Part shown: in pieces, positions 6,270 to 26,827 of the stretch
Position numbering within the stretch: the stretch's first letter is position 1
Layout of the letters: every line of letters starts with the position of its first letter
Sequence record: PZ445442.1
DNA: 64,000 nt
Source of the DNA: a phage
Reading direction: 5' to 3' (one strand)
Program-made: the position numbers and the translations under genes
The notes under the pieces: model-generated
Told to the model about the DNA's origin: nothing
What the model saw: the letters and a program-made list of their open reading frames with translations, nothing else
The model's database searches: none

Positions 6270-7316
6270 GTGATGACTAAACCAGTTATCCCTCTTGATA
6301 TTTGGGCCAATCAGGATGTTGTGCTTGAAAATACGGGAGAGTTGAATAAGTCTCAACCAAAAAAAGAAGATAGATTGAAAGGTTGGGATATGACACAAAG
6401 AATGGCATGTGAAGTTGTTAACTTTGAACTTCACATGCTTTCTGCGTGGTTAAAGCATCTAACAGAAGATGTTGTCCCAGGATGGGATAATAGATTCTTA
6501 AGGGTCACTAATAATCTAGCAGACGTTCCAGACAAAGCTGCTGCACGTCAAGTTCTCAATGTATACTCGCCTGAAGAAATGGACGATCTGTATGTTGACA
6601 AGTCTGGAGACATAATGACTCAGACTCAAACTTTAGGTCTTCAAAGAATCGAGTTTGCATCTGCGTCAACAGACAATGCGGCAATATATACCACCATAAC
6701 TCCAGACAAGACGACGATGGATTTCTGGATTATGGACAACATCGGTGGTGCTGACGGCACAGACCTTGATGATCCTTCCCACCAAATAGACGGGTTCCGT
6801 TGGAGATTTCAACCTTCTGGTGGGCAGCCTGTGTTTTCGGCTATGAAGCTCAATGCTATAACTGCCAATCGTGCAAGACTGGCCATCCAAGGAAATCTTG
6901 AATGCAACGATGCAAAAAGTTCCTCTGCAAATGCCAATGCGGTCACGATACCAAGAGCCACTGTTAATGGACAACAATCCTGCGGAAGCGCTCAAATAGG
7001 TGGAAGAGTTGATTGTAACGATGAAACCGTCAGGGGCCAATATGCAACAGTTGGTGGAAGAAACGTGGTCCGCAGGGTAAATGGTAACAGCGCAGACAGT
7101 AGCGGTAACCTTACTATCCCTATTCCTAGCAGAGGGGTTGATGATGTAAGGATAGCAAACCGTTTTAAAACCACCTACAGAGAGTCAAGAGTCTACCCTG
7201 GACATGTGATGTGCTCTGGCAACTACGCTTATAAACACCCTTATCAAGGTGATTACTGGACAGGTGCTATCCAAAAACTTGTAAATGGTCAATGGATCAC
7301 TATATCTTATGCTTAA
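6270..7316 (+). CDS. tail fibre / receptor-binding protein, paralog 2
   Basis: 348 aa; conserved N-terminus (PLDIWANQDVVL..GWD), central FRWRFQP block and C-terminus IQKLVNGQWITISYA shared with 4218..5258. Confidence 0.6.
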   Translation: MMTKPVIPLDIWANQDVVLENTGELNKSQPKKEDRLKGWDMTQRMACEVVNFELHMLSAWLKHLTEDVVPGWDNRFLRVTNNLADVPDKAAARQVLNVYSPEEMDDLYVDKSGDIMTQTQTLGLQRIEFASASTDNAAIYTTITPDKTTMDFWIMDNIGGADGTDLDDPSHQIDGFRWRFQPSGGQPVFSAMKLNAITANRARLAIQGNLECNDAKSSSANANAVTIPRATVNGQQSCGSAQIGGRVDCNDETVRGQYATVGGRNVVRRVNGNSADSSGNLTIPIPSRGVDDVRIANRFKTTYRESRVYPGHVMCSGNYAYKHPYQGDYWTGAIQKLVNGQWITISYA

Positions 7317-7327
7317 AAAGAGGGTAA

Positions 7328-7594
7328 ATGAAACTAACTCAGTTTTTATGGGGACTGGTTGCGGCATCTGATGACCCTACGAAAGTGTCCCAATCTAAGC
7401 TATGGTCGAACATAGGCATGGCGGTGATGACTGGGGTGTTTATTCATATGGGGTATAATGATACGCTTCCTGAATGGTATGCGTGGATATACGCGCCTTC
7501 AGTAGCTTGCCCCCAGCTTATTAGCAAATTCATCTCGCTCCGGTGGGGTTGCCAGCACCCTGACCACGTTAAAAACGAAGAGCAAAAAGCTTAA
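7328..7594 (+). CDS. hypothetical small membrane protein
   Basis: 88 aa with hydrophobic segments; RBS-like AGAGGG upstream. Confidence 0.35.
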   Translation: MKLTQFLWGLVAASDDPTKVSQSKLWSNIGMAVMTGVFIHMGYNDTLPEWYAWIYAPSVACPQLISKFISLRWGCQHPDHVKNEEQKA

Positions 7595-7603
7595 GGAGAA
7601 ATC

Positions 7604-9349
7604 ATGGCGCAAGACATGACAAGCTTTGAGCAGGCGGTAGATCAAGTAATTGTTGATTCTGAACGTTTGCACCTGATTGTCAACGGTAACGCTGTGGATG
7701 AAGTTGTCGTAGAGGATGGGACCACCATCCCTACGGTACGAAAAGCCATGCTTGACACCCTTTATTTTAAAACGCCACCGATCCCTTGGGCGTATGGTGC
7801 ATCCACAACAGTTTTTAACCAGCTGTACGAGTTTAAAGGGGACACAGGCCCTCAGTGGTGGTACGCTCCCGCAGCATCAAAATCTAACCCGGTTAGAATG
7901 CCAGCAGATCCTTCACAATCTCCAAACTGGAGATTATATACCGATTCTGCAGTAATGGCAAAATACTACGCAAAACTTAACAGTCCGAGGTTTGAAGGTG
8001 ACCCGCGAGTACCTACGCCTCCAATGGACGACAAATCAGAGTCTATAGCAAACACAGAGTTTGTTGTTGACTATGTGGATAGCATATTTGAAGCCATGGA
8101 GGGAATGAAAGTTACTGTAGGGTCTTTGGTGGTAAAAGGTCTTACAGAACTTGCTAACACCATAGTTGGTGGCACACTCACCTTACATGGGCCTGTTAAT
8201 GGAGCAGATTCTACTGCACGCTTCAGGAACCTAATCCTCACGGCAAATACTTCTACACTTACTTTTGCGTGGAGTGATCCTAAGCATGCAGACTGGAGAA
8301 GCACAGAGCTGCAACCTTATGAAGTGTCCACCCACAGGGTTATAGCTGACACTATAACTTCTGGGAAACCAGTGGCTAATAATAACGATGTGCATTTTGA
8401 TGGTCTAGGTAATAACTTTTTTGACTACGTGTACATTCGTGGTAATGCCATGAAGGCAGCAACCGAACCGACATTGCAGGTAGATGGGACCACCAGGGTT
8501 AAGAACCTTGAGGTGACAGGTACTGTTACAGGGATAACCTACTCTGTCGATGGCACCATGATCTACCCTAGCTATATTGAAAGCACGGGGGACGCATTAA
8601 TAAATGGTGATTTAGAAGTTGGCGGATCTGTAGTTATTCGAGGTACAGCCTCTATCCAAAACATAGCTCTGAATACCTTAAGAGTCAATGAACGTGCAAC
8701 TTTTGAAGGAGAAGGACTTACAGCCAACAAAGGTGTAATTACCGAGCTGACAACCACCACTTTAACTGCAACAACTGCAAACTCTGAAAACTGCAACGTT
8801 ACCAGAAACTTGCAGGTAAATGGAGATGTTAGTTTAAACGCAGCAGGTACGGGCACCACCTACCTTCACAACCTTGAAATATCCGGCACAGTGACTGGGT
8901 GGCTGCCAGACTTCTCTAATGTCAACTTTGTTTGTAATGGCATTAACTCCAGTGGTAAGATAACTACCTCTCAAGAAATTGAGGCGGGTAAAACCATTAC
9001 TGCCCCTACTTTCCACGCAGGAAAGGTAGATTTTGATTTAGAGGAGGTTGACGCGTCCAGTGGGACATGGACACCCAACGGGCAGGCCAGCATGTATGTT
9101 GTCCACGCGAAAGGGGATTTTACAATAGGACAATGGCCTGGTACATCAGCGGAAGATAAACCTTATCCATTTACTGCAGTTATCTATGTCATTCAGGATG
9201 CTGTAGGTCACAACGTGACTTTGCACGATAAGTATGCTATCCTGTCGGCAACACCTGTTATTAACAACAAGGCTAACAGTGTTACCCTGCTGCAATTAAC
9301 ATATTGTGGTGTTGGTGATATCGTAGACGTAGTAATTGCACAACGTTAA
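7604..9349 (+). CDS. tail fibre / tailspike-like protein
   Basis: 581 aa, Thr/Gly/Asn/Val-rich repetitive beta-type sequence typical of fibre shafts; RBS AAGGAGA. Confidence 0.5.
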   Translation: MAQDMTSFEQAVDQVIVDSERLHLIVNGNAVDEVVVEDGTTIPTVRKAMLDTLYFKTPPIPWAYGASTTVFNQLYEFKGDTGPQWWYAPAASKSNPVRMPADPSQSPNWRLYTDSAVMAKYYAKLNSPRFEGDPRVPTPPMDDKSESIANTEFVVDYVDSIFEAMEGMKVTVGSLVVKGLTELANTIVGGTLTLHGPVNGADSTARFRNLILTANTSTLTFAWSDPKHADWRSTELQPYEVSTHRVIADTITSGKPVANNNDVHFDGLGNNFFDYVYIRGNAMKAATEPTLQVDGTTRVKNLEVTGTVTGITYSVDGTMIYPSYIESTGDALINGDLEVGGSVVIRGTASIQNIALNTLRVNERATFEGEGLTANKGVITELTTTTLTATTANSENCNVTRNLQVNGDVSLNAAGTGTTYLHNLEISGTVTGWLPDFSNVNFVCNGINSSGKITTSQEIEAGKTITAPTFHAGKVDFDLEEVDASSGTWTPNGQASMYVVHAKGDFTIGQWPGTSAEDKPYPFTAVIYVIQDAVGHNVTLHDKYAILSATPVINNKANSVTLLQLTYCGVGDIVDVVIAQR

Positions 9350-9397: not shown

Positions 9398-12300
9398 ATG
9401 CTTCCAATCCCTTTGCTAAAACTTGGTCGTCATTTCCTCGATAAGAGGGGTGGAATTAAGGAACTTGCTGTTCTGTCATACCCAATAGACAACAGTGATG
9501 GTACAAGCAACACAGTATCCTATGTAAATAGCTTAGCTATACTTTTTGATGATGGTCAACTTAATATCACGGGCTATAACAGGTTCGGAGAGTGCCGCAC
9601 TGGGGATCTTGACACGATAAACTATCCCAACGAGGCTGCCTGGAACGTTGATCATGTGTGGAGAGCAGACCGTGCGTTTGTGATCCGAACTTTTGATAAC
9701 CAGTTTTTCTACATCGGCTGCACTGCAGGGCTTATTGGGTCTGATGCTGCAGGCGGTAATGATGTTTGTGTAAGAGAGTGGACACCTCTTCCTGAACAGA
9801 TCGTTAAAGGATTGCACCTTGACACCCACCCAGAGCGCCTTATTGAGGTGATGGGTGGTATTAACAACACTGTCTGGGTTATTGCAGAGGCAGAAGGCAC
9901 TGGCATACTTAACCTGTATGGGTCTGGTAACAACACCTACGGATCTTTGCATGTAGATAAAAATCAGCATGCAACCCCTGTAAAGATTGGTGAGACATCG
10001 GAAAATCCTGAAACAGGCCCTTGGAAAAACCCAAGCATCAACTGCGAGGTGCATGACAACTCTGTTATTTTCGGTGGTCCTAGGGGTTTCTGGATTGCTG
10101 GATACGACTTTCTGAGAAATAACAGTAGAAACGACCTTGTTTGGCCTCCTGTGCAGATCACTCGTAACGATTTGAGGGGCATTCCTGCAGATGAGGAGTG
10201 GAAAGGGTTTATGTGTGGTCCTAACGGGGCAATAATTGCCACACAGAGGATGCATAGACCCGATGACCAGCAGCTTGTTAACGTATTCTACGGGCAAGAC
10301 GTTTGGGGAGATGACACATGGCGTTCCTTAAATATCACCTACACCCATGAGGTAATAATGGCTCGTGGGTACGGCACAAGTGGCATTTTCTTCAATAATG
10401 GCACTAAGCAGTATCGTGGATTCTCTCGCAACTTGTGTAATGATATTGGCGCACAATCTGCAAACAATAGCCCTAGGGCCAATTTTATCCACTATCAAGC
10501 TCTTGCTACAGCTAAATATGTTGAGCAACGCCTGCCAGTTAGCTGGACAGAGAGTGTTTATTTCCAAGGCATCCACAGGGAAGGTTTCTTAGGAACCTTT
10601 ACTGTTGTTAATGGTAAACTTTGGTGGTCAGGCATCCCAAGGGGGAGTTTTGCAGGCTCTAACAACCTGTTTGGCGGCAGACTTAATAGTCAGGGGTTCA
10701 CAGAGGTTCCTGAGAATTGGTATAAAAATGTCCCAGTAGACAGTTGGGGTGTTGATGATATTTTCGACGTTAACGGTGTTAGCAGCGTTAGCAATATTTA
10801 CATTGGTGACACGGTCAAGATGAAATTGAAGCCTCAGCCAGAAGGGGCTACGTTCATTATTGACAAGATTGAACTGGTAAATGCTGCAGGCACGGTTGTT
10901 ACAGATGCAAATTACCAATTCTCCACCAACTGGAACCACGGCGGGGCCAATGAAGTTGTTGTTACCCAGTATAACAGAAATGTTAACAGACGTGGCCTGT
11001 ACTCTGTAAAAATAACTTATCATGACAAGCATGGCACAGGCAGAACCCATACGACAAGGACTTTGAACTGGAACACCATAGTTCCTGCGTATCCGTCTAA
11101 CGGCAAGTGGCATACCGTTGGTAGAAACAAGCAGTTCCATGTTAACGATACTGTATACTTTGGGCTGAATGGTACTCAGCCTGCAGTAGAAGGTGATACA
11201 TCATATATGGTCCGACTCCACAGAATGGATGCTGGATCAGTCACTTACGATGTTACCCAAGAGATTTATGATCAGAGAAGAAATACCTACAACAACTTGG
11301 TGCAGACACAGGCCGTATGGGAGTTCAACCCTAACGGCAGAGGTGGTAAAATGTTGCAGGTTAACGAGCAAAACGGAACGTCGTTAACTGTCCACGAACA
11401 CCCAGACCCTTGGCCTGATCCTGGAAAACCTCACCCAGGCGCTCGTACGCTGAAAATTGTCAGCCATGATGTAGGATATTTCGGAATACGCTGGGAAGCT
11501 ACAGTAAGGTATGCCGACGGGACAACAAACAACATAGGGATTACACTTGGGGGCACCAGTGAGGATAACTCGCTGAAAATTGCCTACACTCCTAGAGGTA
11601 TTTCTATTGATAATATGGATGTTGTTCGCAACGGTTACGGGGATGTGAACATCAAAGTTACTCTTGGTGAACATCTTGGCGGGGAAAGGATCATCATGTA
11701 CGCCTTTGATCACGACCCACGCACTGACGGAACCTATGCAGACCAAGCGTGGAGCTACCTGATAAGCGCACCTGAGCCAAATACCAAAGAATTCTACTAC
11801 GGTATGAAACGGGATGTGTGCAAGAAAACAGGGACACATGACTGGATTGCAATCTGCGTTAAAGATGAACGTACCGCTTGGGACGAGCCTGTTAACAGAT
11901 GGTTCATAGGAATTCCCACTCGAAGTGATAAATACGTTGAAGAATATATTGTATGCATGGGCGGCACCAACCTCAACATGTGTTGGAACGAGGATGCAAA
12001 CAAATACTCTGATTATGATTATATGAGGGATTACTCTTGCAATCAATGGTTTAACCAAACCGGGTATGCTAATCGACAGTCAAGAGTAAACCCTGCAATC
12101 TTTACAGATACGCAGGTTTTCTTGACAAAACAGGCCAACGAGGTTCAGACCTTCAAGAACAAATACGACCCTAACAAGTGGTTTTATAACTGTTATGGCG
12201 CATTTTTCTGGGGGCCAGGGGAACTGCCTAACGGGGGATCTTGCTTCGAGGCTGCAACTTACGCCAGTGATTACATCATGGGGCAGGTTAAGAAGTATAA

Positions 12301-18534: not shown

Positions 18535-18771
18535 TTAATCTTCGTAAATCAGGATTTCTGCTTTAGGTTTTCGTGCTTTCATGTCCAGCTCTATCCAGTG
18601 CACCATAGCTGTTTCAAGAAAAACAGCCTGGATGCATCCGTCCTCAGCAGCGTGTCCTAGCAGCATAACAAGATCTTCTCCTTCGTCATCTGCATCACGA
18701 ACATACAGAATCTCCCCGGGTTCAAAATCTTTAACAACCTGATTGTTGGATAATTTACGAATTTTCGCCAT
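18535..18771 (-). CDS. small protein, member of tandem paralog family A
   Basis: 78 aa; shares the PGE/GTVV...hydrophobic core...E.D pattern with the three upstream 87-aa paralogs. Confidence 0.45.
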   Translation of the reverse strand: MAKIRKLSNNQVVKDFEPGEILYVRDADDEGEDLVMLLGHAAEDGCIQAVFLETAMVHWIELDMKARKPKAEILIYED

Positions 18772-18772
18772 A

Positions 18773-19036
18773 TCAGAAACCCTCTAAAAAGCTCTTGTAG
18801 AAAACAATCTCAGTATCCACACCAGTCACAATCTTGTCGTTCCTGATTTCATCGGTAAGATAGGTGTCAAAACGCAGAACCTGTGTGGTGTTGTCACACA
18901 TCCACTCAGCTGTGACCATTGCGAAAATCTTAGCATCTTCATTATCTGGTGTGAATGTTACCACCTCACCGCACTTAAACTTTTCGATAGGCTGAGTGTT
19001 AGCTTTCGGTTCTGCGATAGTGATTTTTGTGGTCAT
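18773..19036 (-). CDS. small protein, tandem paralog family A
   Basis: 87 aa; CGEVVTF...VTGVDTEIVF resembles neighbours. Confidence 0.5.
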   Translation of the reverse strand: MTTKITIAEPKANTQPIEKFKCGEVVTFTPDNEDAKIFAMVTAEWMCDNTTQVLRFDTYLTDEIRNDKIVTGVDTEIVFYKSFLEGF

Positions 19037-19299
19037 TATTCTCCTCCTTCTTTTGAATAGCTTGTCTCTCCAAGGATGGTAATTTTGGTGTCAAGCTCTG
19101 TAACTTTCATGTTTGGCGGCAGATCGTACAACTCATTATTTTCTAAATCGAACCCCCACACACAATGTTCTCCTGTTTTGACAATCATAACTATGTTTTG
19201 AATGCCGTCTCCGTCGCAACTTACCACGGTCCCACACGGAAAACTGTCTGCACGCTTTTTGTTCTTCACCTTAGAATTGAATACAATGCTGGTAGCCAT
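19036..19299 (-). CDS. small protein, tandem paralog family A
   Basis: 87 aa; PCGTVVSC...VTELDTKITILGE resembles neighbours. Confidence 0.5.
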   Translation of the reverse strand: MATSIVFNSKVKNKKRADSFPCGTVVSCDGDGIQNIVMIVKTGEHCVWGFDLENNELYDLPPNMKVTELDTKITILGETSYSKEGGE

Positions 19300-19562
19300 T
19301 ATTGTTCCTCCACCATAACTTCGCCAAGAATTTCTATGCAGGCATCCATTTCTGTAACAACCAAACTGTGAGGCAGTTCTACAAACACCTTTCTGAACAG
19401 GTCAAATACCCCAACATATATGTTTGCAGGATGTGATTTTACAACAAGTGCTGTATTCACATCCCCAAGTTCATCAACAAACATCACCACAGTGCCTGGA
19501 GCTACTGAGGACAGATACTTCTTAGTTTTACGGTTTGATGCAAATTTTAACTCTGTTGCCAT
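19299..19562 (-). CDS. small protein, tandem paralog family A
   Basis: 87 aa; APGTVVMF...VTEMDACIEILGE resembles neighbours; start and stop overlap neighbours. Confidence 0.5.
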   Translation of the reverse strand: MATELKFASNRKTKKYLSSVAPGTVVMFVDELGDVNTALVVKSHPANIYVGVFDLFRKVFVELPHSLVVTEMDACIEILGEVMVEEQ

Positions 19563-19577
19563 AAATAACCTCCTCTC

Positions 19578-21059
19578 TTACTTAGCGTACTCGATTAATT
19601 CCACAGTTTTCCCAAAGCTCGGGATATAATTTTTATTATACCCCTCAGTGAGGACCCATAGAGTATCGTACTTTTTCCACTTGTTGTCAACAACCTTTTG
19701 TTCAAAGTTATGCTCAAAGTATAGGTCGGTCAGGACGATGACATCTTTTGCATTAGGTATGTTGGCATCCAGATACTCGAACACGCAAGCAGCTGTTGTG
19801 CCCCATGTTGAGTGGACCTCATAGTTGACCATCTCGTCTATGTTGCCGCGAGTGTATACTTTAACCTCTCCAACCTCAGTTGACCAACAGAACATTGTAA
19901 CCTTAAACTCTTTATACAGATTGCACAATCCGGTGATTTCATTGAACATTTTCTTTAAAGTTCTTTGAGAGATCGAGCCAGAAACGTCTAAAGCCACCAC
20001 AATATCTATAGTGTTTTCCGGATTACGACCAGGAACAATAACGTGCTGGTTCTTGTTTATAGTCCCAACTTTTCGCATTGTGCTGGTCAAAGACCCAGAT
20101 CGGCGACCAGGTTTTCTGTAGGTCAGTTCGGCCTTTCTTTTAGACAACATACGTTGCTTAATGATGTCTATATAGTTGATTACAGGCCTACCTCTGTTCT
20201 TGACAAACTCACGCACCGCCTCAGGGCAACGGCCTCCGGACGCTTGCATTGCTGCCTCCAGCATATCACCAGAGTCCTGCATGGCCTGATCTTTATCAGA
20301 TTGGCTGATTACAGGTTGTGGCTGATCATACCCCATAGCCTTTCCAAGATTATCACTGGTGCCACCGTTCCCACTCATGTGATCATCGGTTTGTCGCTTA
20401 TCACTTTGAGAGTTCTCACCTTTACCGTTCTTACTTTTACCGTTATTCTGATCTCTTTGCTTATCAAGAACTGCATAAACGTTCTCAGCAATCCATCCAT
20501 GAAACTTCATGTCGCAGTAGCAGCTGGCTAAGAAGCCAAAAGGCTTACCTTTCATGAACGTAGTGCTTTTCCCCTTCGGGAAGAAAACACAAGGAGGTTT
20601 GCTAAAGTCAACCACAAGGCCTGTGTTGATAACGTGATCACAAGCAATATTGAACAGTTCCGGCTCAAAGCTTTTACCACGGACTAGGTGATCACAGATA
20701 ATATGCCCCACCTCATGTGACAGAAGAAAGGCCACCTCTTTCACAGATTTTGGGGAATAGAAAACCTCAGCCATCTCAAACTGCTTGTCAGTCAGAGATG
20801 CTTTAAGAATGGTTTTACGCTCATCTGCCAACCCCATAATGAACTCAGGGCTGTAGTAGATGCGTTTATGGTCTGTTGCCATAGTGGAGCACCATGTGTG
20901 GTTTTCTACGAACTGCAACCCTGACAACAGTGTGCCATAAAACGGCAGCTTTTCAAGAAGGTACATGCGAGCGGCCTGCAGCATTCGCAAGGCATCATCT
21001 TTTTGTGCGGTAATGATTTCTGAACTTCTGCTATCCATTAAAACTCCAGAAGGGGCCAT
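19578..21059 (-). CDS. vWA-domain protein with HExxH metallopeptidase-like N-terminal domain
   Basis: 493 aa; HEVGHIICDH (HExxH) in N-terminal half and MIDAS-like VVALDVSGSIS (DxSxS) in C-terminal half; start may be the downstream Met (MDSRSS) because the first ATG lies within a GC hairpin. Confidence 0.6.
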   Translation of the reverse strand: MAPSGVLMDSRSSEIITAQKDDALRMLQAARMYLLEKLPFYGTLLSGLQFVENHTWCSTMATDHKRIYYSPEFIMGLADERKTILKASLTDKQFEMAEVFYSPKSVKEVAFLLSHEVGHIICDHLVRGKSFEPELFNIACDHVINTGLVVDFSKPPCVFFPKGKSTTFMKGKPFGFLASCYCDMKFHGWIAENVYAVLDKQRDQNNGKSKNGKGENSQSDKRQTDDHMSGNGGTSDNLGKAMGYDQPQPVISQSDKDQAMQDSGDMLEAAMQASGGRCPEAVREFVKNRGRPVINYIDIIKQRMLSKRKAELTYRKPGRRSGSLTSTMRKVGTINKNQHVIVPGRNPENTIDIVVALDVSGSISQRTLKKMFNEITGLCNLYKEFKVTMFCWSTEVGEVKVYTRGNIDEMVNYEVHSTWGTTAACVFEYLDANIPNAKDVIVLTDLYFEHNFEQKVVDNKWKKYDTLWVLTEGYNKNYIPSFGKTVELIEYAK

Positions 21060-21066
21060 TGGCCCC
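21046..21066 (-). terminator. GC stem-loop between tandem minus-strand genes
   Basis: GGGGCC-loop-GGCCCC hairpin immediately downstream of stop of 21072..22061. Confidence 0.4.
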
Positions 21067-21071
21067 TGTCA

Positions 21072-22061
21072 TTATTTAACGTGCTTGAAAATACCAGCCA
21101 CCTCGGTCATTGTCATGCGAGTGGTCTTCATAAGGTCTGTCATAGCCTTCTCCATGATTGGAGATACTACCATGAAGTTACCTTTGGTGAAACCTTTGTT
21201 CCAGTCGGTAACTAATAGGGGTTTAAGTCCGGCACCGAGACGTTCACCAGTTAAAGCACAACATTTTCGAATGTATGTGCTCTTAAACTGGCTGAATGAC
21301 AGATCAACTTTCATACCTGCATCGTAGAACGTCTGGCAATAGAAAGTGTAAGCTTTGGCAATCTCAACATCGTCAGGCAGTGCAGGAACCTCTTCTGTAA
21401 GCTCTTCTTCGACTCCTTGAGGCTCTTTTTCCTCTTCGTAAGCCTGTTGCGTCATCTCTTCAATCTCCTCTACTACAGGCTCGTTTACAATGTCAGAAAT
21501 GTGCTTGTTGGCTCCACGATTAGCCATGAAGTTTTTAAAATCCTGCATTGGTGACATATCTTCCTCCCATTCTTCGTCAAAGAGTGCTAGTTTATCCTCT
21601 TCCGTTCCATATTGCAAGATGAAATCTTCAAAAGTGTAATCACCTTTCAATTTCTCCATACGCTCTTCGCTCAGGTGGAGCATCATCTGCTGGACAATTT
21701 TTCGATCAGTTTTGTCTTTAATCAAGACTGCGGTCTTTTTATCTACCAGACAGTCCTTTAGAGAGTTGCATCTCAATCCCACCACACAACAGTTATCAAC
21801 CGCATAAGGACCTTCATCATCTATCCGCTCTAGAGATGGGTAGAAAGGATTTCCCAGTCCGTTTTCATCTGTGTGCATGTCGAAAGGTATAAGGGTATAG
21901 TCGCATACTCCCTCTCCTAAAAGTTTTTTACCAAATAGGAGATATTCTTCCCATGACAGGTTGAACTCTATATCTCGTTTCCGTGCATTATTCTGTTTGC
22001 GTCTGTATTTTTTGAGCAAGCGCTCTAACTCTTCTGGTGCATAATATTTTTCAAGATTCAT
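21072..22061 (-). CDS. hypothetical protein with HNH-like N-terminal motif
   Basis: N-terminal SLERIDDEGPY..DN..VV resembles the DRID..GY..N motif of the HNH ORF at 45972; start moved to Met23 because a TTGACA-17-TAAGAT promoter lies inside the track's longer ORF. Confidence 0.45.
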   Translation of the reverse strand: MNLEKYYAPEELERLLKKYRRKQNNARKRDIEFNLSWEEYLLFGKKLLGEGVCDYTLIPFDMHTDENGLGNPFYPSLERIDDEGPYAVDNCCVVGLRCNSLKDCLVDKKTAVLIKDKTDRKIVQQMMLHLSEERMEKLKGDYTFEDFILQYGTEEDKLALFDEEWEEDMSPMQDFKNFMANRGANKHISDIVNEPVVEEIEEMTQQAYEEEKEPQGVEEELTEEVPALPDDVEIAKAYTFYCQTFYDAGMKVDLSFSQFKSTYIRKCCALTGERLGAGLKPLLVTDWNKGFTKGNFMVVSPIMEKAMTDLMKTTRMTMTEVAGIFKHVK

Positions 22062-22092
22062 GAGTTGTCTCTTGTTCTCTGTGGGTGGAGAA

Positions 22093-22121
22093 ATCTTACC
22101 AAGCGCCTGGGGAGATGTCAA
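22093..22121 (-). promoter_or_regulatory. sigma70-like promoter for minus-strand accessory block
   Basis: On minus strand TTGACA-17nt-TAAGAT, upstream of ATG at 22061. Confidence 0.45.
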
Positions 22122-22134
22122 CCTCAAAAACGCG

Positions 22135-22163
22135 TTGACTTTACTTTAAATCTCCGATATAGT
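22135..22163 (+). promoter_or_regulatory. sigma70-like promoter for plus-strand gene block
   Basis: TTGACT-17nt-TATAGT about 40 nt upstream of the 22204 start; back-to-back with the minus promoter. Confidence 0.45.
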
Positions 22164-22203
22164 GCACCCATTCGAAAGAAAACTAACATAGGAGCACTTA
22201 TTC

Positions 22204-23103
22204 ATGGCAAATCTTAACAGTTTTAGCACCAGGTGGCAACAGGATATAACAACCAATCTTTCAGCTGGAGATATCCTTTCTGCAATTTACGAGGCTTTGG
22301 ATGATAAAGCTACTTCAAGATCGGTTTGTACTAATCCGCTAATTCCTATGGTGATGAAGGTAATTGAGCGGAGGTTGGTATCCGGGTCTGATAAGTGGAC
22401 ATACCTTGATAATGGAGGGCATACTTACTCCAACGGATACGTTGATATAAAAGTAGAATACGCAGTATCATACCGCCGGAGCGGTTCTGTAACTTTCAAC
22501 TTCTCTGGAGGTTTTCGATCTCTGGCTACTTCACCTTTTGTTTCCTCAGAGGAGAAGTATGAGCTGCCATTTCTTTGGATGATGGCTAACGCGACAGGAA
22601 AAACCCCCGTTAGCATCCGAGTAAAATACAACTACAACGGATCTAGTAAGATCTATGCCGAAAGTGTTTCAGCAAGTTTTTATTTTGTGATGGGGGATGG
22701 AATCCTCAAACATATAAAGATGTGCGATATGCATGATGTTATAAATGAAGTGACTGATAAGAATGTTCTAGTGAAAGACCTCAATAATTTTTATACACCT
22801 GGAGACTATTACGTCAACCGTCCACTGTGCATCTTTAATGCCGCACACCCTTTGGGTGAGTATTTGATCGCTAATAGCGATATTGCCAATAACCGCTTCG
22901 AGGTGGCAAGAGTACAGAATGAGGTATTGACATCTTGCAAGAGCGGTGATAAGTTTACCGAAGAAGAGATGGGTGTTTTAGAGATGATGGGATATAAGTG
23001 TAGCCTTTGGGTAGATGAGGTGTTTAATGACTGCATCTATGGACAGGATATTTACCCGTTAAAGAAGTATACTGATTCCAGTTTAATTTACGCGGAGATT
23101 TGA
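22204..23103 (+). CDS. hypothetical protein
   Basis: 299-aa ORF with RBS AGGAG upstream. Confidence 0.5.
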   Translation: MANLNSFSTRWQQDITTNLSAGDILSAIYEALDDKATSRSVCTNPLIPMVMKVIERRLVSGSDKWTYLDNGGHTYSNGYVDIKVEYAVSYRRSGSVTFNFSGGFRSLATSPFVSSEEKYELPFLWMMANATGKTPVSIRVKYNYNGSSKIYAESVSASFYFVMGDGILKHIKMCDMHDVINEVTDKNVLVKDLNNFYTPGDYYVNRPLCIFNAAHPLGEYLIANSDIANNRFEVARVQNEVLTSCKSGDKFTEEEMGVLEMMGYKCSLWVDEVFNDCIYGQDIYPLKKYTDSSLIYAEI

Positions 23104-23378
23104 CTATGATGAAGTCATGTGGTAGTGTATATTATGTTGGTGAGAATGTTCAGGCAGATAGTGTGTGGAAATCCATTAAGTCCACCACCGATGATGCCTT
23201 CTTGAGCGGGTTATGTTTCCCCAATCCAGGGGACATCCTCCCTCACCCTGGAGATTTTGTTGTTAACAAGATGGACGGTTATACCGTGTGCCTGATGGTT
23301 GAAAAAATCTTTTTAGACACTAGACACAATCACCGTCTTGTGTTAAAATTTCAAGAATGTAAAATGACAATTGCCTAA
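23100..23378 (+). CDS. hypothetical protein
   Basis: 92-aa ORF overlapping upstream stop. Confidence 0.4.
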   Translation: MTMMKSCGSVYYVGENVQADSVWKSIKSTTDDAFLSGLCFPNPGDILPHPGDFVVNKMDGYTVCLMVEKIFLDTRHNHRLVLKFQECKMTIA

Positions 23379-23748
23379 GGAGGCCTTACCGATGTCTAAA
23401 GCTACTTATCGTGCAGCTATTTACTGCAATGAACACCCCATCAATAATGATGGTCACTGCCTTTTTAAAGAAAATCAGTTGGGCTGTATTGTCCTACCTG
23501 ATGAAGGGAAAGGTTATCTGATTGCATTGACAGGGTTCGAGCCTGAAGCTTTGGAAGCCAATCTGGACTATCTGGTAGAAGAGGGTGCTGCAGACCTGGT
23601 TTCCAATGGCCTCGCCATAAGCCTTGACGAGGTGGAGCGCTTCATGGGCAATTACCGTGTAGTGCGTGAGTTTACTATCGAGGTGGAAACTCCAGAGTGG
23701 GGTAGCACTGAAACTAACGCCGAAGAAAAAGAAGAGGAGGCAGAATAA
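23371..23748 (+). CDS. hypothetical protein
   Basis: 125-aa ORF, RBS AAGGAGG. Confidence 0.45.
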   Translation: MPKEALPMSKATYRAAIYCNEHPINNDGHCLFKENQLGCIVLPDEGKGYLIALTGFEPEALEANLDYLVEEGAADLVSNGLAISLDEVERFMGNYRVVREFTIEVETPEWGSTETNAEEKEEEAE

Positions 23749-24005
23749 TGAAAGTGCAGATCTTGACTAATGCCGAGAAGATGTTTATTGAAGATACACC
23801 TTTTGAAGCTGGTGAGCTACAGTTCGTTTATTTTGTTGACTTAGATAAGGTGTTCCCTGCACTGAATCTGGGTCTGGATGAAGTCCCTCATAAAGTTTTG
23901 TGCCAAGTTGTTCGTGCCTTAGCGGCAGATGGGGATTTCCACACCCTTGAAGATATCCAGACCTACGGGTATCTTGAACTGCAACGAGAAGAAGAGGTGG
24001 ACTGA
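23748..24005 (+). CDS. hypothetical protein
   Basis: 85-aa ORF, ATGA-type overlap. Confidence 0.45.
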   Translation: MKVQILTNAEKMFIEDTPFEAGELQFVYFVDLDKVFPALNLGLDEVPHKVLCQVVRALAADGDFHTLEDIQTYGYLELQREEEVD

Positions 24006-24007
24006 TA

Positions 24008-24388
24008 ATGGCCCGGTGGAAGACAACAGTTGACCTTCATGATCAGTGGTTAGGACGCATCGCTGAAGACGGGAAACTAGTAGAGTGGGACAATAAGCAT
24101 GTTAGCGAGTTGGCAAGCATTGTGGCTGGCAAGTTACGCTCCAAGTTCCCTGAACAACTGGATCCTGATAATTCAAAGTTCGATCCTGAGTTGGAGGATG
24201 TTGTATACTACTTCGATACCGTGGATGACTACGATGCGTGGCTTGCAGCACGGGAGCTTTACCCACAAGGCTCTGCTATGCGCCAGATGGAAGAAGATTA
24301 TCCTCCGTGTGAGCAATTCAATAGCGCAATGACTTGCCTCTATGATTGGGCAGATAAGAACCTTGTCTGGATTCGGACTGCATTTTAG
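24008..24388 (+). CDS. hypothetical protein
   Basis: 126-aa ORF. Confidence 0.45.
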   Translation: MARWKTTVDLHDQWLGRIAEDGKLVEWDNKHVSELASIVAGKLRSKFPEQLDPDNSKFDPELEDVVYYFDTVDDYDAWLAARELYPQGSAMRQMEEDYPPCEQFNSAMTCLYDWADKNLVWIRTAF

Positions 24389-24432
24389 TGGGCAGGAATG
24401 GCGGCAAGGATGCCGCTTAAGGAGTAGTAGAG

Positions 24433-24702
24433 ATGTTATACCAGCAATATGAACTTCGTGCAGAAAAAGAGTTAAATTTTGACAAAGATATTCACAGATA
24501 TTATTATGGGAAAGTTAGAGGGCAAGCAAGAAAGTGTACTCCAACACTCTTTTATGCCAGCAGACGACTAGCGCCAGAAGAGGCAACAGCAGAAAGGGTT
24601 GCGTACAACTGGAGAGTCACGTATGATATTGACAGATTCGATGTGATATCTGTTTTGGAAAACTTTGAAAACACTTACACACAAGTAGAGGACTTTTACT
24701 AA
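24433..24702 (+). CDS. hypothetical protein
   Basis: 89-aa ORF, RBS AAGGAG. Confidence 0.45.
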   Translation: MLYQQYELRAEKELNFDKDIHRYYYGKVRGQARKCTPTLFYASRRLAPEEATAERVAYNWRVTYDIDRFDVISVLENFENTYTQVEDFY

Positions 24703-25886
24703 TGTCAAGAAACGTATTCGAAAGTGGTCAAATCACTGTCCGTGAGTTGCCAGCTATTATTCAGTTTGCCCAACGTCATAGCCGATCTGTCCTAATTTTG
24801 GGACCAATGGGTGTGGGTAAAAGCCAGGTGATGAAGCAGATCGCTGATAATATGTTCGGTGAGCGAGATGACAACCTTGTTGACGTGCGACTGTCAGATA
24901 AAGATCCTGCCGACTTATCTGGGCTACCTATCCCTGTAGAAGCGGATGGAACTACACGTACAGTGTTTGCAATTCCAGAATTTTGGCCTGCGGATCCTGA
25001 CTGGAGCGGAATTATCTTTCTGGATGAGCTCACTCATGCAGATAACTACCTGCAAAAGGTTGCAATGCAAATTATGCTTGACCACAAGTGCGGCACCTAT
25101 GCATTCCCTAAGGGTTCTGTTTTTGTGGCTGCGGGTAACCGTTCTACAGATGGTGCGGTTCTTTCGGCGCTCGAAGCCCCTCTGGCTAACCGTTTTATCA
25201 TTGTAGAGGTTACAAGCAATGCAGAGGTGTTTATTGAGGACTACGCATTCCTCAACGGGGTTCACTCCTCTGTAATTGGGTATCTGAAAAGAGTTCCATC
25301 AGCTATTGATAATTATGAGGCTATGGCTGAGATTAATTGTCCATCTTTTGCCACACCACGATCTTGGGTTGCTGCATCTGACATCTTGCACGATTTTGAC
25401 AGCGGTATTATTTCTGACGCTATGGCCCGTGTTCTTCTGCAAGGTGCTATTGGTCACACTGCAGCGGTAGAGATCTGGACATACCACACCAAGAAACGCA
25501 ATTTACCGGAAATCGGTCGGATTATGGCAGGTGGCTGCAAAGAATACGTAGGTCCTAAGCAGCCAGACATTTTGTGGATTCTTGGATCTGAAGGTTGTAT
25601 CGCTATTCGTAATATGATGGAAAATGCAAGTATCTCAGACGAAGATCTTGTCAGCTGTGTGGCAAACTTCCTCGATTTCCTTTGGGAAAACTTCAAGGAC
25701 GAGAACCGAGATTTTGTATTCTCAGTCTTTATGGCGATGATGAAACCTAATGCCTTAGGAAATGCCTTGCTTATCGGTAAAGGGCGTGACAAGATTGTTG
25801 CTCAGCTGATCAAAGCATACCCAAACCTGATGAAGATTGTAAAAGAGTTTGGTGAAGAGTTTAGCGCCATTTTGGCTAAAGCTTAA
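24702..25886 (+). CDS. MoxR-like AAA ATPase
   Basis: 394 aa; Walker A LILGPMGVGKSQ and Walker B IIFLDELTHAD. Confidence 0.6.
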   Translation: MSRNVFESGQITVRELPAIIQFAQRHSRSVLILGPMGVGKSQVMKQIADNMFGERDDNLVDVRLSDKDPADLSGLPIPVEADGTTRTVFAIPEFWPADPDWSGIIFLDELTHADNYLQKVAMQIMLDHKCGTYAFPKGSVFVAAGNRSTDGAVLSALEAPLANRFIIVEVTSNAEVFIEDYAFLNGVHSSVIGYLKRVPSAIDNYEAMAEINCPSFATPRSWVAASDILHDFDSGIISDAMARVLLQGAIGHTAAVEIWTYHTKKRNLPEIGRIMAGGCKEYVGPKQPDILWILGSEGCIAIRNMMENASISDEDLVSCVANFLDFLWENFKDENRDFVFSVFMAMMKPNALGNALLIGKGRDKIVAQLIKAYPNLMKIVKEFGEEFSAILAKA

Positions 25887-25896
25887 GGGGGGTTGT

Positions 25897-26277
25897 ATGG
25901 CTAAAGTAGGTAAGCGGGGAAACTACCTGGTGGTATTGACCGAGGAGCCGGAGAAGGAGTACGAATGCAGCTCCACTTGCGTGATCGATATCCGAGAAAA
26001 AGATGTAGATGAAATCTGGTTTAAAATATTGGACGCTTGCGATAGCAGTGATTATTTCTTCATTTATGTCAACGATAAGGCTGGATTCTTCCATGACGAC
26101 GGAGAGTTGCCGTATGAAATCTATGAACTTGTAGAGGCTTGCCATCGTGGAGATGCGGAGTTGTTTGGCCTACGGCTGAAAAGCGGTAAATTCTTCTATC
26201 AAGATGAGTGCATGAATCTTCATAACTTTGTAGAGGGAACTTGCAACGATGGAGAGATTTTGGCACACTACGATTAA
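25897..26277 (+). CDS. hypothetical protein
   Basis: 126 aa from ATG at 25897 (RBS AAGGGGGG); the track's longer ORF begins inside the previous gene. Confidence 0.45.
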   Translation: MAKVGKRGNYLVVLTEEPEKEYECSSTCVIDIREKDVDEIWFKILDACDSSDYFFIYVNDKAGFFHDDGELPYEIYELVEACHRGDAELFGLRLKSGKFFYQDECMNLHNFVEGTCNDGEILAHYD

Positions 26278-26288
26278 TTTCTAAGACC

Positions 26289-26317
26289 TCCCCCGCTTCG
26301 GCGGGGATTTTCTATTT
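26289..26317 (+). terminator. Rho-independent terminator
   Basis: CCCCGC-TTCG-GCGGGG stem-loop followed by ATTTTCTATTT. Confidence 0.6.
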
Positions 26318-26326
26318 GGAGTCATT

Positions 26327-26827
26327 GTGAAAATTAAGATCTTTGCTATTATTTTGAGCGCACTTTTATCGCTGCCTGTTGTTGCAGCACCAAAACAAAA
26401 AGTATATCATACTTGCAAGCCCTCAGATACTAAGGAAAACATTCTGGCATGCAATATCTACAGGGAGGCTAGAGGGGATGGCACGATGGGTATGCTGGCA
26501 TCAGGGTTTGCCACACTAAACAGGAAATCTCACCCCAAATACCCAGACACTATAAGAAAGATTGTCTACCAACCTAACCAGTTTTCGTGGACAAACCACG
26601 GCAAAACTTTTAAGGTGACAGAAAAAGATTCATGGGATCACGCTAAAAGTCTTGCAAAGATGCTTCTAAAGGTCTATAATAACAACCATGTTGCATACAT
26701 GGCTATGGACATAACAGGTGGAGCAACACACTACCATACAACCAAAGTACGACCGAAATGGGCAAAAAAGATGCAGAGGACAGCTCAATTCGGGAGTCAT
26801 ATCTACTACAAGGAGCGCAATAAATGA
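26327..26827 (+). CDS. secreted cell-wall hydrolase (SleB-like), candidate endolysin
   Basis: 166 aa; N-terminal signal peptide (ILSALLSLPVVAAP); CNIYREARGDG...ATLNR resembles the SleB/Hydrolase_2 family; GTG start. Confidence 0.55.
   Translation: MKIKIFAIILSALLSLPVVAAPKQKVYHTCKPSDTKENILACNIYREARGDGTMGMLASGFATLNRKSHPKYPDTIRKIVYQPNQFSWTNHGKTFKVTEKDSWDHAKSLAKMLLKVYNNNHVAYMAMDITGGATHYHTTKVRPKWAKKMQRTAQFGSHIYYKERNK

Follow-up and report, generated by a model that had tools for sequence, protein, structure and literature searches.

Related systems

The closest described counterparts of the gene pair analysed here are gp24 (an AAA+ ATPase) and gp25 (a vWFA protein) of N4 and its relatives in the Schitoviridae, which are homologous to, and share the domain content of, two proteins encoded in the window, a 64,000-nt stretch of phage DNA (PZ445442.1). 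Both are encoded by early/middle genes that are listed as core in N4-like phages, where the two genes share a strand and are neighbours, or have no more than a homing endonuclease between them, whereas in the window they lie on opposite strands. The identity between the N4-type and window proteins is only ~19–23%, and compared with N4 the rV5-type VWA protein has an insertion ahead of the HExxH helix and the rV5-type ATPase an extra C-terminal helical domain.

The same two families are found in bacteria (for example Sulfurivermis fontis, Thiohalomonas, Sedimenticola and Chromatiaceae) as AAA_5–DUF2201 operons, in the order ATPase then DUF2201, with the same invariant HExxH…H…D and MIDAS residues as in the phage. 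These operons are chromosomal, with the stress/redox neighbours HSP15, thioredoxin, peroxiredoxin, ferrochelatase and Lon, and their proteins are shorter and always encoded on the same strand.

NorQ/NorD and CbbQ/CbbO (CGN subfamily of MoxR AAA+ proteins) follow the same two-protein logic of an ATPase with a VWA/MIDAS partner, and gave the best matches of the ATPase model (E ~3e-8, TM 0.62–0.69 on the target). Cryo-EM of NorQD has shown a VWA finger within the pore of the ATPase, with the C-terminus of NorD sitting on the post-sensor-1 loop (PMC13036017). The NorQ/CbbQ-type proteins are, however, only 15–21% identical to the phage protein, NorQ has no C-terminal extension (only ~270 of 394 residues align), NorD and CbbO lack an HExxH domain, and their clients (nitric oxide reductase and Rubisco) are absent from the coliphage context. 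RavA/ViaA of E. coli and midasin (Rea1) likewise combine MoxR/AAA_5-type modules with a MIDAS-bearing VWA domain. In midasin a single giant polypeptide contains both the MIDAS domain and six AAA modules; LARA and triple-helical domains are found in RavA, whose operon partner ViaA is without a peptidase domain.

In the MoxR–vWA ternary conflict systems (Kaur, Burroughs, Iyer and Aravind 2020, PMC7159879) the MoxR–vWA core is sometimes fused to peptidase effectors, though rarely to a metallopeptidase (PMC7159879), and a weak bpMoxR Pfam match of the phage ATPase is consistent with this. Those systems serve bacterial defence and have a third component (VMAP, iSTAND, FtsH or a beta-propeller), whereas the phage pair is virus-encoded and no conserved third component was found beside it, either on the contigs of homologues P0048, P0086 and P0036 or at the junctions of the genera in which the pair is split.

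Organisation of the locus

Escherichia phage EmilHeitz (MZ501062.1), an rV5-like Vequintavirus, matches the window at 100% identity. The two genes themselves are ordinary and already annotated there; what is unusual is their layout, and the features concerned are as follows.

19578..21038, minus strand: VWA/HExxH gene (MZ501062.1 bas49_0055, annotated ‘putative metallopeptidase’)
21051..21067, minus strand: GC-rich palindromic hairpin (AGGGGCC-AAT-GGCCCCT) lying after the anti-sigma stop and ahead of the VWA start
21072..22061, minus strand: Srd-like ‘anti-sigma factor’ gene (PHROG 3118/1400; MZ501062.1 annotation)
22062..22203, no strand assigned: bidirectional early promoter region separating the two transcription units
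22204..24702, plus strand: six small/unassigned genes before the ATPase (lineage-specific PHROGs)
24702..25886, plus strand: ATPase gene (MZ501062.1 bas49_0063, annotated ‘ATPase / MoxR ATPase’)
26291..26306, plus strand: rho-independent terminator, CCCCGCTTCGGCGGGG then a T-run, identical to published rV5 t003

The VWA and ATPase genes are 3,643 nt apart on opposite strands. The first-pass annotation had located both open reading frames and their strands correctly and had counted six other genes between them; seven were found, both as open reading frames and as annotated CDSs (21072–22061 on the minus strand, then 22204–23103, 23100/23106–23378, 23371/23392–23748, 23748–24005, 24008–24388 and 24433–24702). 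The longest VWA open reading frame does reach 21059, but the ATG at 21038 (486 aa) is the start used in GenBank and in homologue P0121 and is preceded by a GGAG Shine–Dalgarno sequence, whereas the ATG at 21059 falls within the hairpin; on these sequence features, 21038 is most likely the start of the gene.

The anti-sigma gene is the first in the minus-strand unit, directly upstream of the VWA gene, and its homologues occupy this place in Hena1, SEW_6S and NDO71 as well: the Srd-like gene is a conserved junction anchor in all split genera. The rV5 protein gp11 has been described as a Srd homologue. A Pfam search of the six plus-strand genes gave no matches, and a homologue from a second split genus (NDO71) was found for 24008–24388 alone; these genes are genus-variable filler outside the ATPase/VWA module. 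The plus-strand unit is closed by the terminator, one gene past the ATPase.

Divergent promoters had been proposed between the two genes, and a sequence scan located back-to-back sigma-70-like sites there, TTGACT-17-TATAGT at 22135–22163 (plus strand) and TTGACA-17-TAAGAT at 22121–22093 (minus strand), which are the counterparts of the published rV5 promoters P010 and P011. The plus-strand site is near-identical to P010, while the minus-strand site corresponds to P011 in its position and −35 element and differs in its spacer. At this junction Hena1, NDO71 and SEW_6S likewise have promoter-like sites on the minus strand that are close to consensus. The scan returned 18 sites in total against 14.1 ± 3.8 in shuffled sequence, which is not above expectation, and no transcriptome supporting the predicted promoters was found; the promoters are predicted here from sequence. 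Another near-consensus sigma-70-like site, at 24479–24507 ahead of the ATPase gene, could provide for separate regulation of the ATPase.

Adjacency of the pair and its split in the Vequintavirinae

In N4-like phages, tblastn matches of the window proteins are annotated ‘N4 gp24-like’ and ‘N4 gp25-like’, and G7C gp24 and gp25 matched the family HMMs with E-values of 1.9e-46 and 1.2e-81. These homology searches show the window ATPase and VWA genes to be orthologues of N4 gp24/gp25. The premise of the first-pass annotation, that a MoxR ATPase usually adjoins its VWA partner, is true for exactly these two families. Among loci with enough flanking DNA to judge, the ATPase gene was on the same strand as, and within ~2 kb of, the DUF2201 gene at 77/77 bacterial loci, at 18/18 N4-like viral loci and on ~70 other viral contigs, for ~170 loci overall outside the split lineage. 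The ATPase gene is upstream of the DUF2201 gene and usually adjacent to it. At 80 IMG/VR loci the DUF2201 gene followed directly downstream on the same strand wherever there was at least ~200 nt of downstream DNA, with three exceptions: both vequintavirus-like loci, and L037, an indeterminate case whose contig ends just past an intervening open reading frame. Adjacency was also seen on the contigs of homologues P0048, P0086 and P0036; CR9, Serratia BF and G7C keep the pair on one strand, and Cassandra has it on the same strand with four genes between. Comparison of these loci shows the reconstructed ancestral state to be adjacent, in the order ATPase then VWA.

Among these loci the opposite-strand split was seen only in the Vequintavirinae (Vequintavirus, Henunavirus, Mydovirus and a Seunavirus-like phage), and in Certrevirus the genes are still adjacent. 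Both genes of the split genomes flank one bidirectional sigma-70 promoter region, a single junction common to the four genera. The rV5-type layout is, judging from these loci, the derived exception, unusual because the rV5-like group appears to have moved one half of the pair across a shared two-way promoter.

It had been suggested that the two proteins either work together despite separate transcription or have different partners. The former is strongly favoured because the genes co-occur in relatives, essentially always, and as a rule sit side by side on one strand. Of the two results that the first-pass annotation had named as refuting, an ATPase outside the MoxR class and a lack of co-occurrence in relatives, neither was obtained. 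We propose, at a probability of roughly 80%, that the two genes encode subunits of one N4 gp24/gp25-type machine, which would have been split by relocation and would still be co-acting.

The VWA/HExxH protein

The presence of both a vWA domain and an HExxH motif in the minus-strand protein, noticed in the first-pass annotation, was borne out by Pfam matches to DUF2201_N (E 4.6e-28) and to the VWA-like DUF2201 (E 2.9e-11). The protein consists of a DUF2201_N zincin-like domain, a disordered linker (~residues 210–235) and a DUF2201 VWA domain whose MIDAS (DxSxS…T…D) is complete and sits on a Rossmann-like alpha/beta fold; HExxH occupies residues 115–119 and DxSxS residues 358–362. The motifs are not chance occurrences, since H115, E116, H119, H124 and D141 as well as the MIDAS residues D358, S360, S362, T421 and D445 do not vary among 36 homologues from phages and bacteria. 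In the AlphaFold model (pLDDT 82.6) strands at 60–69 precede the helix at 106–121, and model and alignment display the zincin arrangement, in which the active-site HExxH helix comes after an edge beta-strand and H124 and D141 lie downstream.

Fold searches matched the C-terminal domain to VWA folds including those of BatB, NorD and Rea1-MIDAS; with the whole chain the VWA domain dominated, and VWA matches but no peptidase fold match were returned. A profile of the N-domain searched against the PDB matched zincins only (MJ1213, 0.004; M48 3c37, 0.016; HtpX, 0.083; BepA, 0.14), the ten matches having marginal E-values (0.004–0.2) and covering ~40 residues, and the Peptidase_M48 Pfam score was 0.025. 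From the motif conservation and these weak profile matches we infer a putative peptidase activity for the HExxH domain. No experiments on DUF2201 proteins or on this ATPase/VWA family were found in the searchable literature, where DUF2201 turned up in just three papers, all unrelated.

It is conceivable, though we consider it unlikely, that the pair cooperates with an HExxH domain that is not a protease but holds or delivers metal, the machine then serving some metalloenzyme of the phage or the host as a metal-insertion chaperone. NorQ/NorD, CoxD/CoxE and chelatases are precedents, characterised MoxR–VWA pairs being mostly maturation or metal-insertion factors (PMC13036017, PMC3893208), and the lack of a peptidase fold match with the full model fits such a role. 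The gene neighbourhoods agree with it too: the phage pair often lies amid nucleotide-metabolism genes (thymidylate synthase, dCTP deaminase and 5′–3′ exonuclease), and the bacterial pair adjoins genes for ferrochelatase, thioredoxin and peroxiredoxin. However, the invariant HExxH glutamate is the zincin catalytic base, which mere metal binding would not need, all 10/10 N-domain PDB profile matches are zincin peptidases aligned over the strand–helix–HExxH core, and Pfam labels DUF2201_N a putative metallopeptidase.

Maintenance of the pair

Each protein is encoded at one place per record (530–786 phage records), the window has one match each for the VWA and ATPase families, and no second VWA or MoxR homologue was found in the split genomes. 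Every split genus has kept both genes with the Walker, MIDAS and HExxH residues invariant. Measured against a relative 93–95% identical in both genes, the VWA gene has a dN/dS of 0.055 and the ATPase gene one of 0.025. The pairwise divergences of the two proteins correlate (r = 0.97, n = 71; 0.92 for 13 lineage representatives), a pattern that vertical inheritance would give for any two genes and that is no proof of interaction. Taken from the sequence comparisons, the VWA and ATPase proteins most likely still cooperate.

We regard it as quite improbable that the genes became functionally independent after the split, each protein acting alone or with another partner, for instance the VWA protein with host RavA, or the ATPase with host ViaA or a different phage protein. 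Separate transcription units on opposite strands would allow for this, as would the possible promoter of the ATPase gene’s own and the clade-specific C-terminal extension of the ATPase (~110 aa), which could bind something else. Against this stand the single copy of each gene, their joint retention with invariant motifs in every split genus, the strong purifying selection and matched divergence of both, and a pair that is inseparable at the ~170 other loci.

The AAA+ ATPase

Placing the plus-strand ATPase among the ‘MoxR-like’ proteins, as the first-pass annotation had done, required indirect evidence because it reached the threshold of no Pfam AAA family. None of the Pfam/NCBIfam AAA models matched at its curated threshold, the best sub-threshold Pfam matches being AAA_5 (E 0.0075, 16.7 bits vs a cutoff of 22) and bpMoxR PF20030 (E 0.012, 15.1 bits vs 27), while PHROG 1297 matched at 2e-110. 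Homologues at ~34% identity (E ~1e-44) carry PF07726 (AAA_3)/PF07728 (AAA_5), as do the bacterial operon partners of DUF2201, and the bacterial AAA_5 proteins adjoining DUF2201 scored 243 bits against the phage ATPase profile; with the window ATPase itself below every cutoff, its MoxR membership is by transitive homology to these proteins. The best PDB match of the family profile was to the midasin AAA modules (9e-12).

Walker A (GPMGVGKS, 34–41), Walker B (IIFLDE, 104–109), sensor-1 N146, R147 and R164 are invariant in 35 homologues. The AlphaFold model (pLDDT 85.4) consists of an AAA+ core and a C-terminal helical extension of ~110 aa, with a predicted helix-2 insert hairpin (strands 75–81/84–90, between beta2 and beta3) and a short predicted pre-sensor-1 hairpin (~129–136, ahead of beta4). 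The extension is absent in the bacterial and N4-type homologues, whose profile matches stop at ~278–311 of 397. In Foldseek searches with the model, NorQ and CbbQ2 chains took ranks 1–17, and cso-CbbQ and the MoxR protein CHU_0153 (2r44) were also matched. Homologues and model together support assignment to the MoxR class and its helix-2-insert clade. That the protein might be another AAA+ ATPase (Clp/Hsp100-like unfoldase or clamp-loader-like) with a coincidental proximity to the VWA gene is highly improbable: the sub-threshold AAA models and a single-sequence PDB search yielding only ClpB/ClpC/p97 P-loop matches point that way, but those matches span only ~40–50 residues around Walker A, the full-length evidence indicates MoxR/AAA_5, and adjacency to DUF2201 is conserved in bacteria and several phage families.

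Proposed mechanism

The comparisons show that the two genes are orthologues of the N4 pair, were ancestrally adjacent, came apart in one lineage and are single-copy, with their catalytic motifs intact and under purifying selection. In the split two-subunit machine that we propose, the MoxR-class AAA+ ATPase would form a presumably hexameric ring, and its cognate adaptor/effector would be the VWA protein with its C-terminal MIDAS-bearing VWA domain and N-terminal HExxH zincin-like domain. The ancestral genes would have been transcribed together as well as adjacent. Relocation and inversion of the VWA gene would date to the ancestor shared by Vequintavirus, Henunavirus, Mydovirus and Seunavirus-like phages; that gene would have come to lie behind the Srd-like anti-sigma gene on the opposite promoter arm while the ATPase gene kept the original arm, and co-expression would be maintained by the back-to-back early promoters instead of an operon. 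The analogy of NorQ/NorD, CbbQ/CbbO, RavA/ViaA and midasin suggests that the VWA domain may dock onto the ATPase ring and its MIDAS site grip an acidic residue of a target protein; ATP hydrolysis would remodel the target or the adaptor linker, and the zincin domain might then cleave the target or else deal with a metal ion. Early/middle timing, and neighbours that recurrently include nucleotide-metabolism/replication genes, suggest that the target is a host or phage protein handled early in infection.

A more speculative possibility, which we think doubtful, is that the opposite-arm layout with the VWA-peptidase behind an Srd-like anti-sigma decoy is adaptive, not neutral, setting subunit stoichiometry or timing separately. 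For example, the peptidase adaptor might come first, along with the host-takeover factor, and production of the ATPase ‘motor’ might follow, either by read-through from P010 or from a promoter of its own at 24479–24507, so that the machine would be armed only at one defined point of infection and would cleave or remodel a host protein, such as a component of the transcription apparatus or of a defence system. If this were true, the N4 gp24/gp25 core module would be an ATP-gated host-takeover protease. Lastly, the hairpin at 21051..21067 may serve as an attenuator, or else as a processing site.

Gene layout in the window

Over bases 19000-26500 the window matches Escherichia phage EmilHeitz (Bas49, MZ501062.1), an rV5-like Vequintavirus, at 100% identity, and a further 121 near-identical records were found for the same region. 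Examination of the window ORFs confirmed that both genes singled out in the first-pass annotation exist as described; MZ501062.1 labels them bas49_0055 ('putative metallopeptidase') and bas49_0063 ('ATPase; MoxR ATPase'). The main features are as follows:

19578-21038 (or 21059), minus strand, VWA gene, coding for a DUF2201_N + DUF2201 protein
21072-22061, minus strand, gene of an Srd-like anti-sigma factor
22062-22203, 142-nt junction between the two transcription units
24702-25886, plus strand, ATPase gene
26291-26306, hairpin, corresponding to the published rV5 terminator t003

Six genes had initially been counted between the ATPase and VWA genes, but ORF calling and the MZ501062.1 annotation both give seven. 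The start first assigned to the VWA gene, 21059, is indeed where the longest ORF begins, but GenBank takes 21038, as does P0121, the 98%-identical cluster representative (486 aa), which begins at the equivalent position. A suitably spaced GGAG precedes the ATG at 21038, and that at 21059 lies inside a GC-rich palindromic hairpin (21051-21067). This hairpin, a perfect 7-bp palindrome (AGGGGCC AAT GGCCCCT) between the stop codon of the Srd-like gene and the VWA start, overlaps the upstream in-frame ATG; it may act as an attenuator, in RNA processing or to stabilise the transcript. The VWA gene is followed directly downstream by three consecutive minus-strand ORFs of 87 aa (18773-19036, 19036-19299 and 19299-19562), which look like a tandemly duplicated small-gene family: the latter two are clear paralogues (39% identity, E 6e-12), and the first and a 78-aa ORF at 18535-18771 are no more than faintly similar to each other.

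Domain assignment of the two proteins

Two Pfam families matched the VWA protein: DUF2201_N (E 4.6e-28), named 'putative metallopeptidase', and DUF2201 (E 2.9e-11), named 'VWA-like'. When 36 homologues from phages and bacteria were aligned (mean column identity 30%), the invariant columns were essentially those of two active sites, H115, E116, H119, H124 and D141 of the HExxH domain and D358, S360, S362, T421 and D445 of the MIDAS site. In its AlphaFold model (pLDDT 82.6) a helical N-domain, which has a small sheet ahead of the HExxH helix, is followed by an acidic/Gly-rich linker, disordered, at about 210-235 and then by an alpha/beta C-domain. When the N-domain profile was compared with the PDB, only zincin peptidases were retrieved (the minimal zincin MJ1213, E 0.004; an M48 peptidase, 0.016; HtpX; BepA), matches which are consistent with a zincin peptidase, at marginal E-values.

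The ATPase fell below every curated threshold of Pfam and NCBIfam, giving sub-threshold P-loop matches only. A single-sequence PDB search matched the Walker A regions of ClpB, ClpC and p97 only. Both sets of matches were discarded as uninformative on class. Three independent lines instead point to the MoxR class, as initially proposed. Firstly, homologues with ~34% identity over 85% of the length (E~1e-44) carry PF07726 (AAA_3) and PF07728 (AAA_5), and some PF20030 (bpMoxR). Secondly, a family profile built from 35 sequences matched the AAA modules of midasin (9e-12). Thirdly, the AlphaFold model (pLDDT 85.4, pTM 0.79) shows two hairpins, a beta-hairpin inserted after helix 2 (75-90) and one ahead of sensor 1, and the PDB structures it matches best are those of NorQ (17 of the top 20), CbbQ2, cso-CbbQ and the MoxR protein CHU_0153. 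No variation occurs at the residues of Walker A, Walker B and sensor-1 or at the arginines. Unlike NorQ, the window ATPase has a C-terminal helical extension of ~110 residues, to which profile alignments of bacterial or N4-type homologues do not extend either.

By analogy with characterised MoxR/VWA pairs, the ATPase would probably form a hexamer gripping the VWA domain, the MIDAS site would bind the client and ATP-driven remodelling would be coupled to the zincin domain; the predicted HExxH domain may then serve either in client cleavage or in metal handling. Literature searches, including those for DUF2201 and for rV5 with MoxR, and the CRISPRi-ART paper, in which the rV5-like phage EdH4 was used, gave nothing on the function of either gene or on expression or transcriptomes in the Vequintavirinae.

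Linkage of the pair in other lineages

Co-occurrence and synteny place the two genes together in every other lineage examined. In metagenomic myovirus-like contigs the DUF2201_N + DUF2201 gene directly follows the ATPase gene on the same strand. Eighty IMG/VR loci were retrieved with the ATPase profile and scored where downstream DNA sufficed: all showed the same-strand ATPase-DUF2201 order, with typical gaps of 85-190 nt, save two exceptions, both vequintavirus-like. One locus (L037) was indeterminate, its contig ending just past an intervening ORF. For the reciprocal retrieval from the VWA protein, the alignment (A2) was too diverse and was divided into bacterial (A3) and N4-like (A4) subsets. 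In the bacterial set of 80 loci, three of which were incomplete, the ATPase gene lay upstream on the same strand in 77/77 determinable cases, at a distance of <=300 nt in 72; among N4-like viral loci a same-strand ATPase gene was present within 1.5 kb in 18/18, adjacent in 16. Records of N4-like phages name the tblastn matches 'N4 gp24-like' and 'N4 gp25-like', and gp24 and gp25 count among the ~14 core genes of these phages, as middle genes to which the literature assigns no function.

Arrangement of the pair in individual phages
Certrevirus CR9: genes 126 and 127, adjacent
Serratia jumbo phage BF: gp212 and gp213, adjacent
G7C: gp24 and gp25, one homing endonuclease inserted
Pseudomonas phage Cassandra: ATPase and VWA genes on the same strand, four genes between

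Extra genes appear to have settled repeatedly between the two: an HNH homing endonuclease in G7C (7003-7479 of the retrieved locus), a 340-aa ORF in L037 (2961-3983) and, among the four interposed in Cassandra, a 498-aa protein with weak restriction-endonuclease-like matches (10405-11901). In two bacterial loci, from Sulfurivermis and Thiohalomonas, the called genes run from an HSP15-like S4 protein and thioredoxin through the ATPase and DUF2201 genes to a ~370-aa protein without assignment and then ferrochelatase or peroxiredoxin, a conserved neighbourhood which may point to housekeeping in stress or redox for the bacterial AAA_5-DUF2201 operon.

The ATPase matched 786 records versus 530 for the VWA protein, in part because of Vibrio phage VB_VaC_TDDLMA, whose ATPase (23% identical) has no DUF2201 neighbour and was set aside as a different MoxR system. 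The locus (570-2078, 7947-9056) encodes a clear AAA_5/MoxR-type ATPase (E 9e-12), and a TROVE/Ro60-like protein, its vWA domain of the Ro60 type, is encoded on the same strand 7 kb upstream; these may represent another separated MoxR-vWA pairing of a different kind.

Origin of the split

An arrangement with the two genes on opposite strands is common to Vequintavirus, Henunavirus (Hena1), Mydovirus (NDO71), the Seunavirus-like Salmonella phage SEW_6S and an IMG/VR contig (L008). The order is VWA (minus), 0-3 small genes, Srd-like anti-sigma (minus), the junction, 2-7 small genes and ATPase (plus), with a cell-wall hydrolase and rIIA later. Between these genera only the VWA, Srd-like, ATPase and distal genes are conserved; the intervening genes vary, and the pair is therefore separated by 4-11 genes, depending on the genus. 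Certrevirus, of the same subfamily, retains the adjacent arrangement. It follows that the split is an old, lineage-specific rearrangement, which was kept as the proteins diverged to 43-53% identity. A simple inversion could not be derived from the flanking genes: CR9 has only the ATPase and VWA genes in common with the window region, and the rearrangement path is therefore not reconstructable from these data.

The junction carries putative back-to-back sigma-70-like sites. That on the plus strand differs little from P010, a published rV5 promoter, and that on the minus strand corresponds to P011 by position and -35 element. With P010 and t003 as boundaries, the ATPase gene would be the penultimate gene of a unit of ~4.1 kb, and the VWA gene the predicted second gene of the P011 unit. 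The other split genera also have promoter-like sites close to consensus (11/12 matches) at this junction. Among sigma-70 consensus matches in the region, the best lies at 24479-24507 on the plus strand (TTGACA-17-TATTAT, 11/12), ~195 nt upstream of the ATPase start and inside the ORF at 24433-24702; it is not among the promoters published for rV5 and may serve the ATPase gene as a promoter within the unit.

Each protein is encoded at one place per genome record, with one match each in the window, and comparison with L007, a locus 93-95% identical in both genes, gave dN/dS values of 0.055 (VWA gene) and 0.025 (ATPase gene); an indel offset separates the window from L007 in the ORF at 22204-23103. 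Pairwise distances of the two proteins were correlated across 71 genomes (r = 0.97, reached in 0/2000 permutations) and among 13 non-redundant lineages (r = 0.92), a correlation which indicates co-inheritance and is no specific proof of interaction. Of the two readings initially offered, the first, that the two proteins work together despite separate transcription, is supported.

Neither the genes and their annotations nor the MoxR-VWA principle is new, and the finding, one of annotated genes in a rearranged layout, is in itself ordinary. What appears new is that the rV5-type layout is a derived split of an otherwise near-universally linked module, its halves kept together by a predicted bidirectional promoter; no statement of this was found in the searchable literature, and it is a modest comparative-genomic point. 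The pair is one of few modules common to very different virulent phages, its range covering N4-like podoviruses (2 of ~14 core genes), rV5-like myoviruses, several jumbo phages and bacteria. The Vequintavirinae split offers a natural experiment in which the probable partnership is independent of operon linkage, and in which each subunit could be manipulated or silenced separately without polar effects. Gene-neighbourhood methods will miss the pairing in rV5-like phages.

Annotation of related records

Mis-annotation of DUF2201 VWA/metallopeptidase proteins is widespread in GenBank records of phages, where they are called 'HNH endonuclease', 'homing endonuclease', 'anti-sigma factor', 'DNA repair ATPase' or 'tail protein', apparently because PHROG 1314 bears the label 'HNH endonuclease'; Pfam detected no HNH motif or domain in the VWA protein. 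The present analysis corrects the labels 'HNH/homing endonuclease', 'anti-sigma factor' and 'DNA repair ATPase'.

At 24433-24702 (plus strand) an 89-aa ORF runs into the start codon of the ATPase gene (ATGA). PHROG 13164 and several GenBank records call it 'ATPase', but Pfam gave no match and blastp no homologue in the other split genera; the label is probably an annotation carry-over. On the blastp result the ORF was also rejected as a conserved third partner. The ORF at 22204-23103 (plus strand) is called 'putative (alpha) 1-3 fucosyltransferase' in many records, an annotation which looks unsupported, with no Pfam match and a PHROG (12338) without assigned function.

Salmonella phage vB_Sen_SG_WM_SEW_6S (PQ002171.1) is filed under Demerecviridae, yet has a vequintavirus-type junction, ATPase, VWA and rIIA/rIIB genes, and its tiny early ORFs bear names such as 'tail protein' and 'baseplate wedge subunit'; the taxonomy line and several product names look wrong. 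Lastly, sixteen 'Campylobacter phage' records (e.g. MG065635.1 and MG065677.1; host Campylobacter jejuni) are ~96-97% identical to rV5-like coliphages in this region, which suggests mislabelled hosts or contaminating coliphages in the data set.
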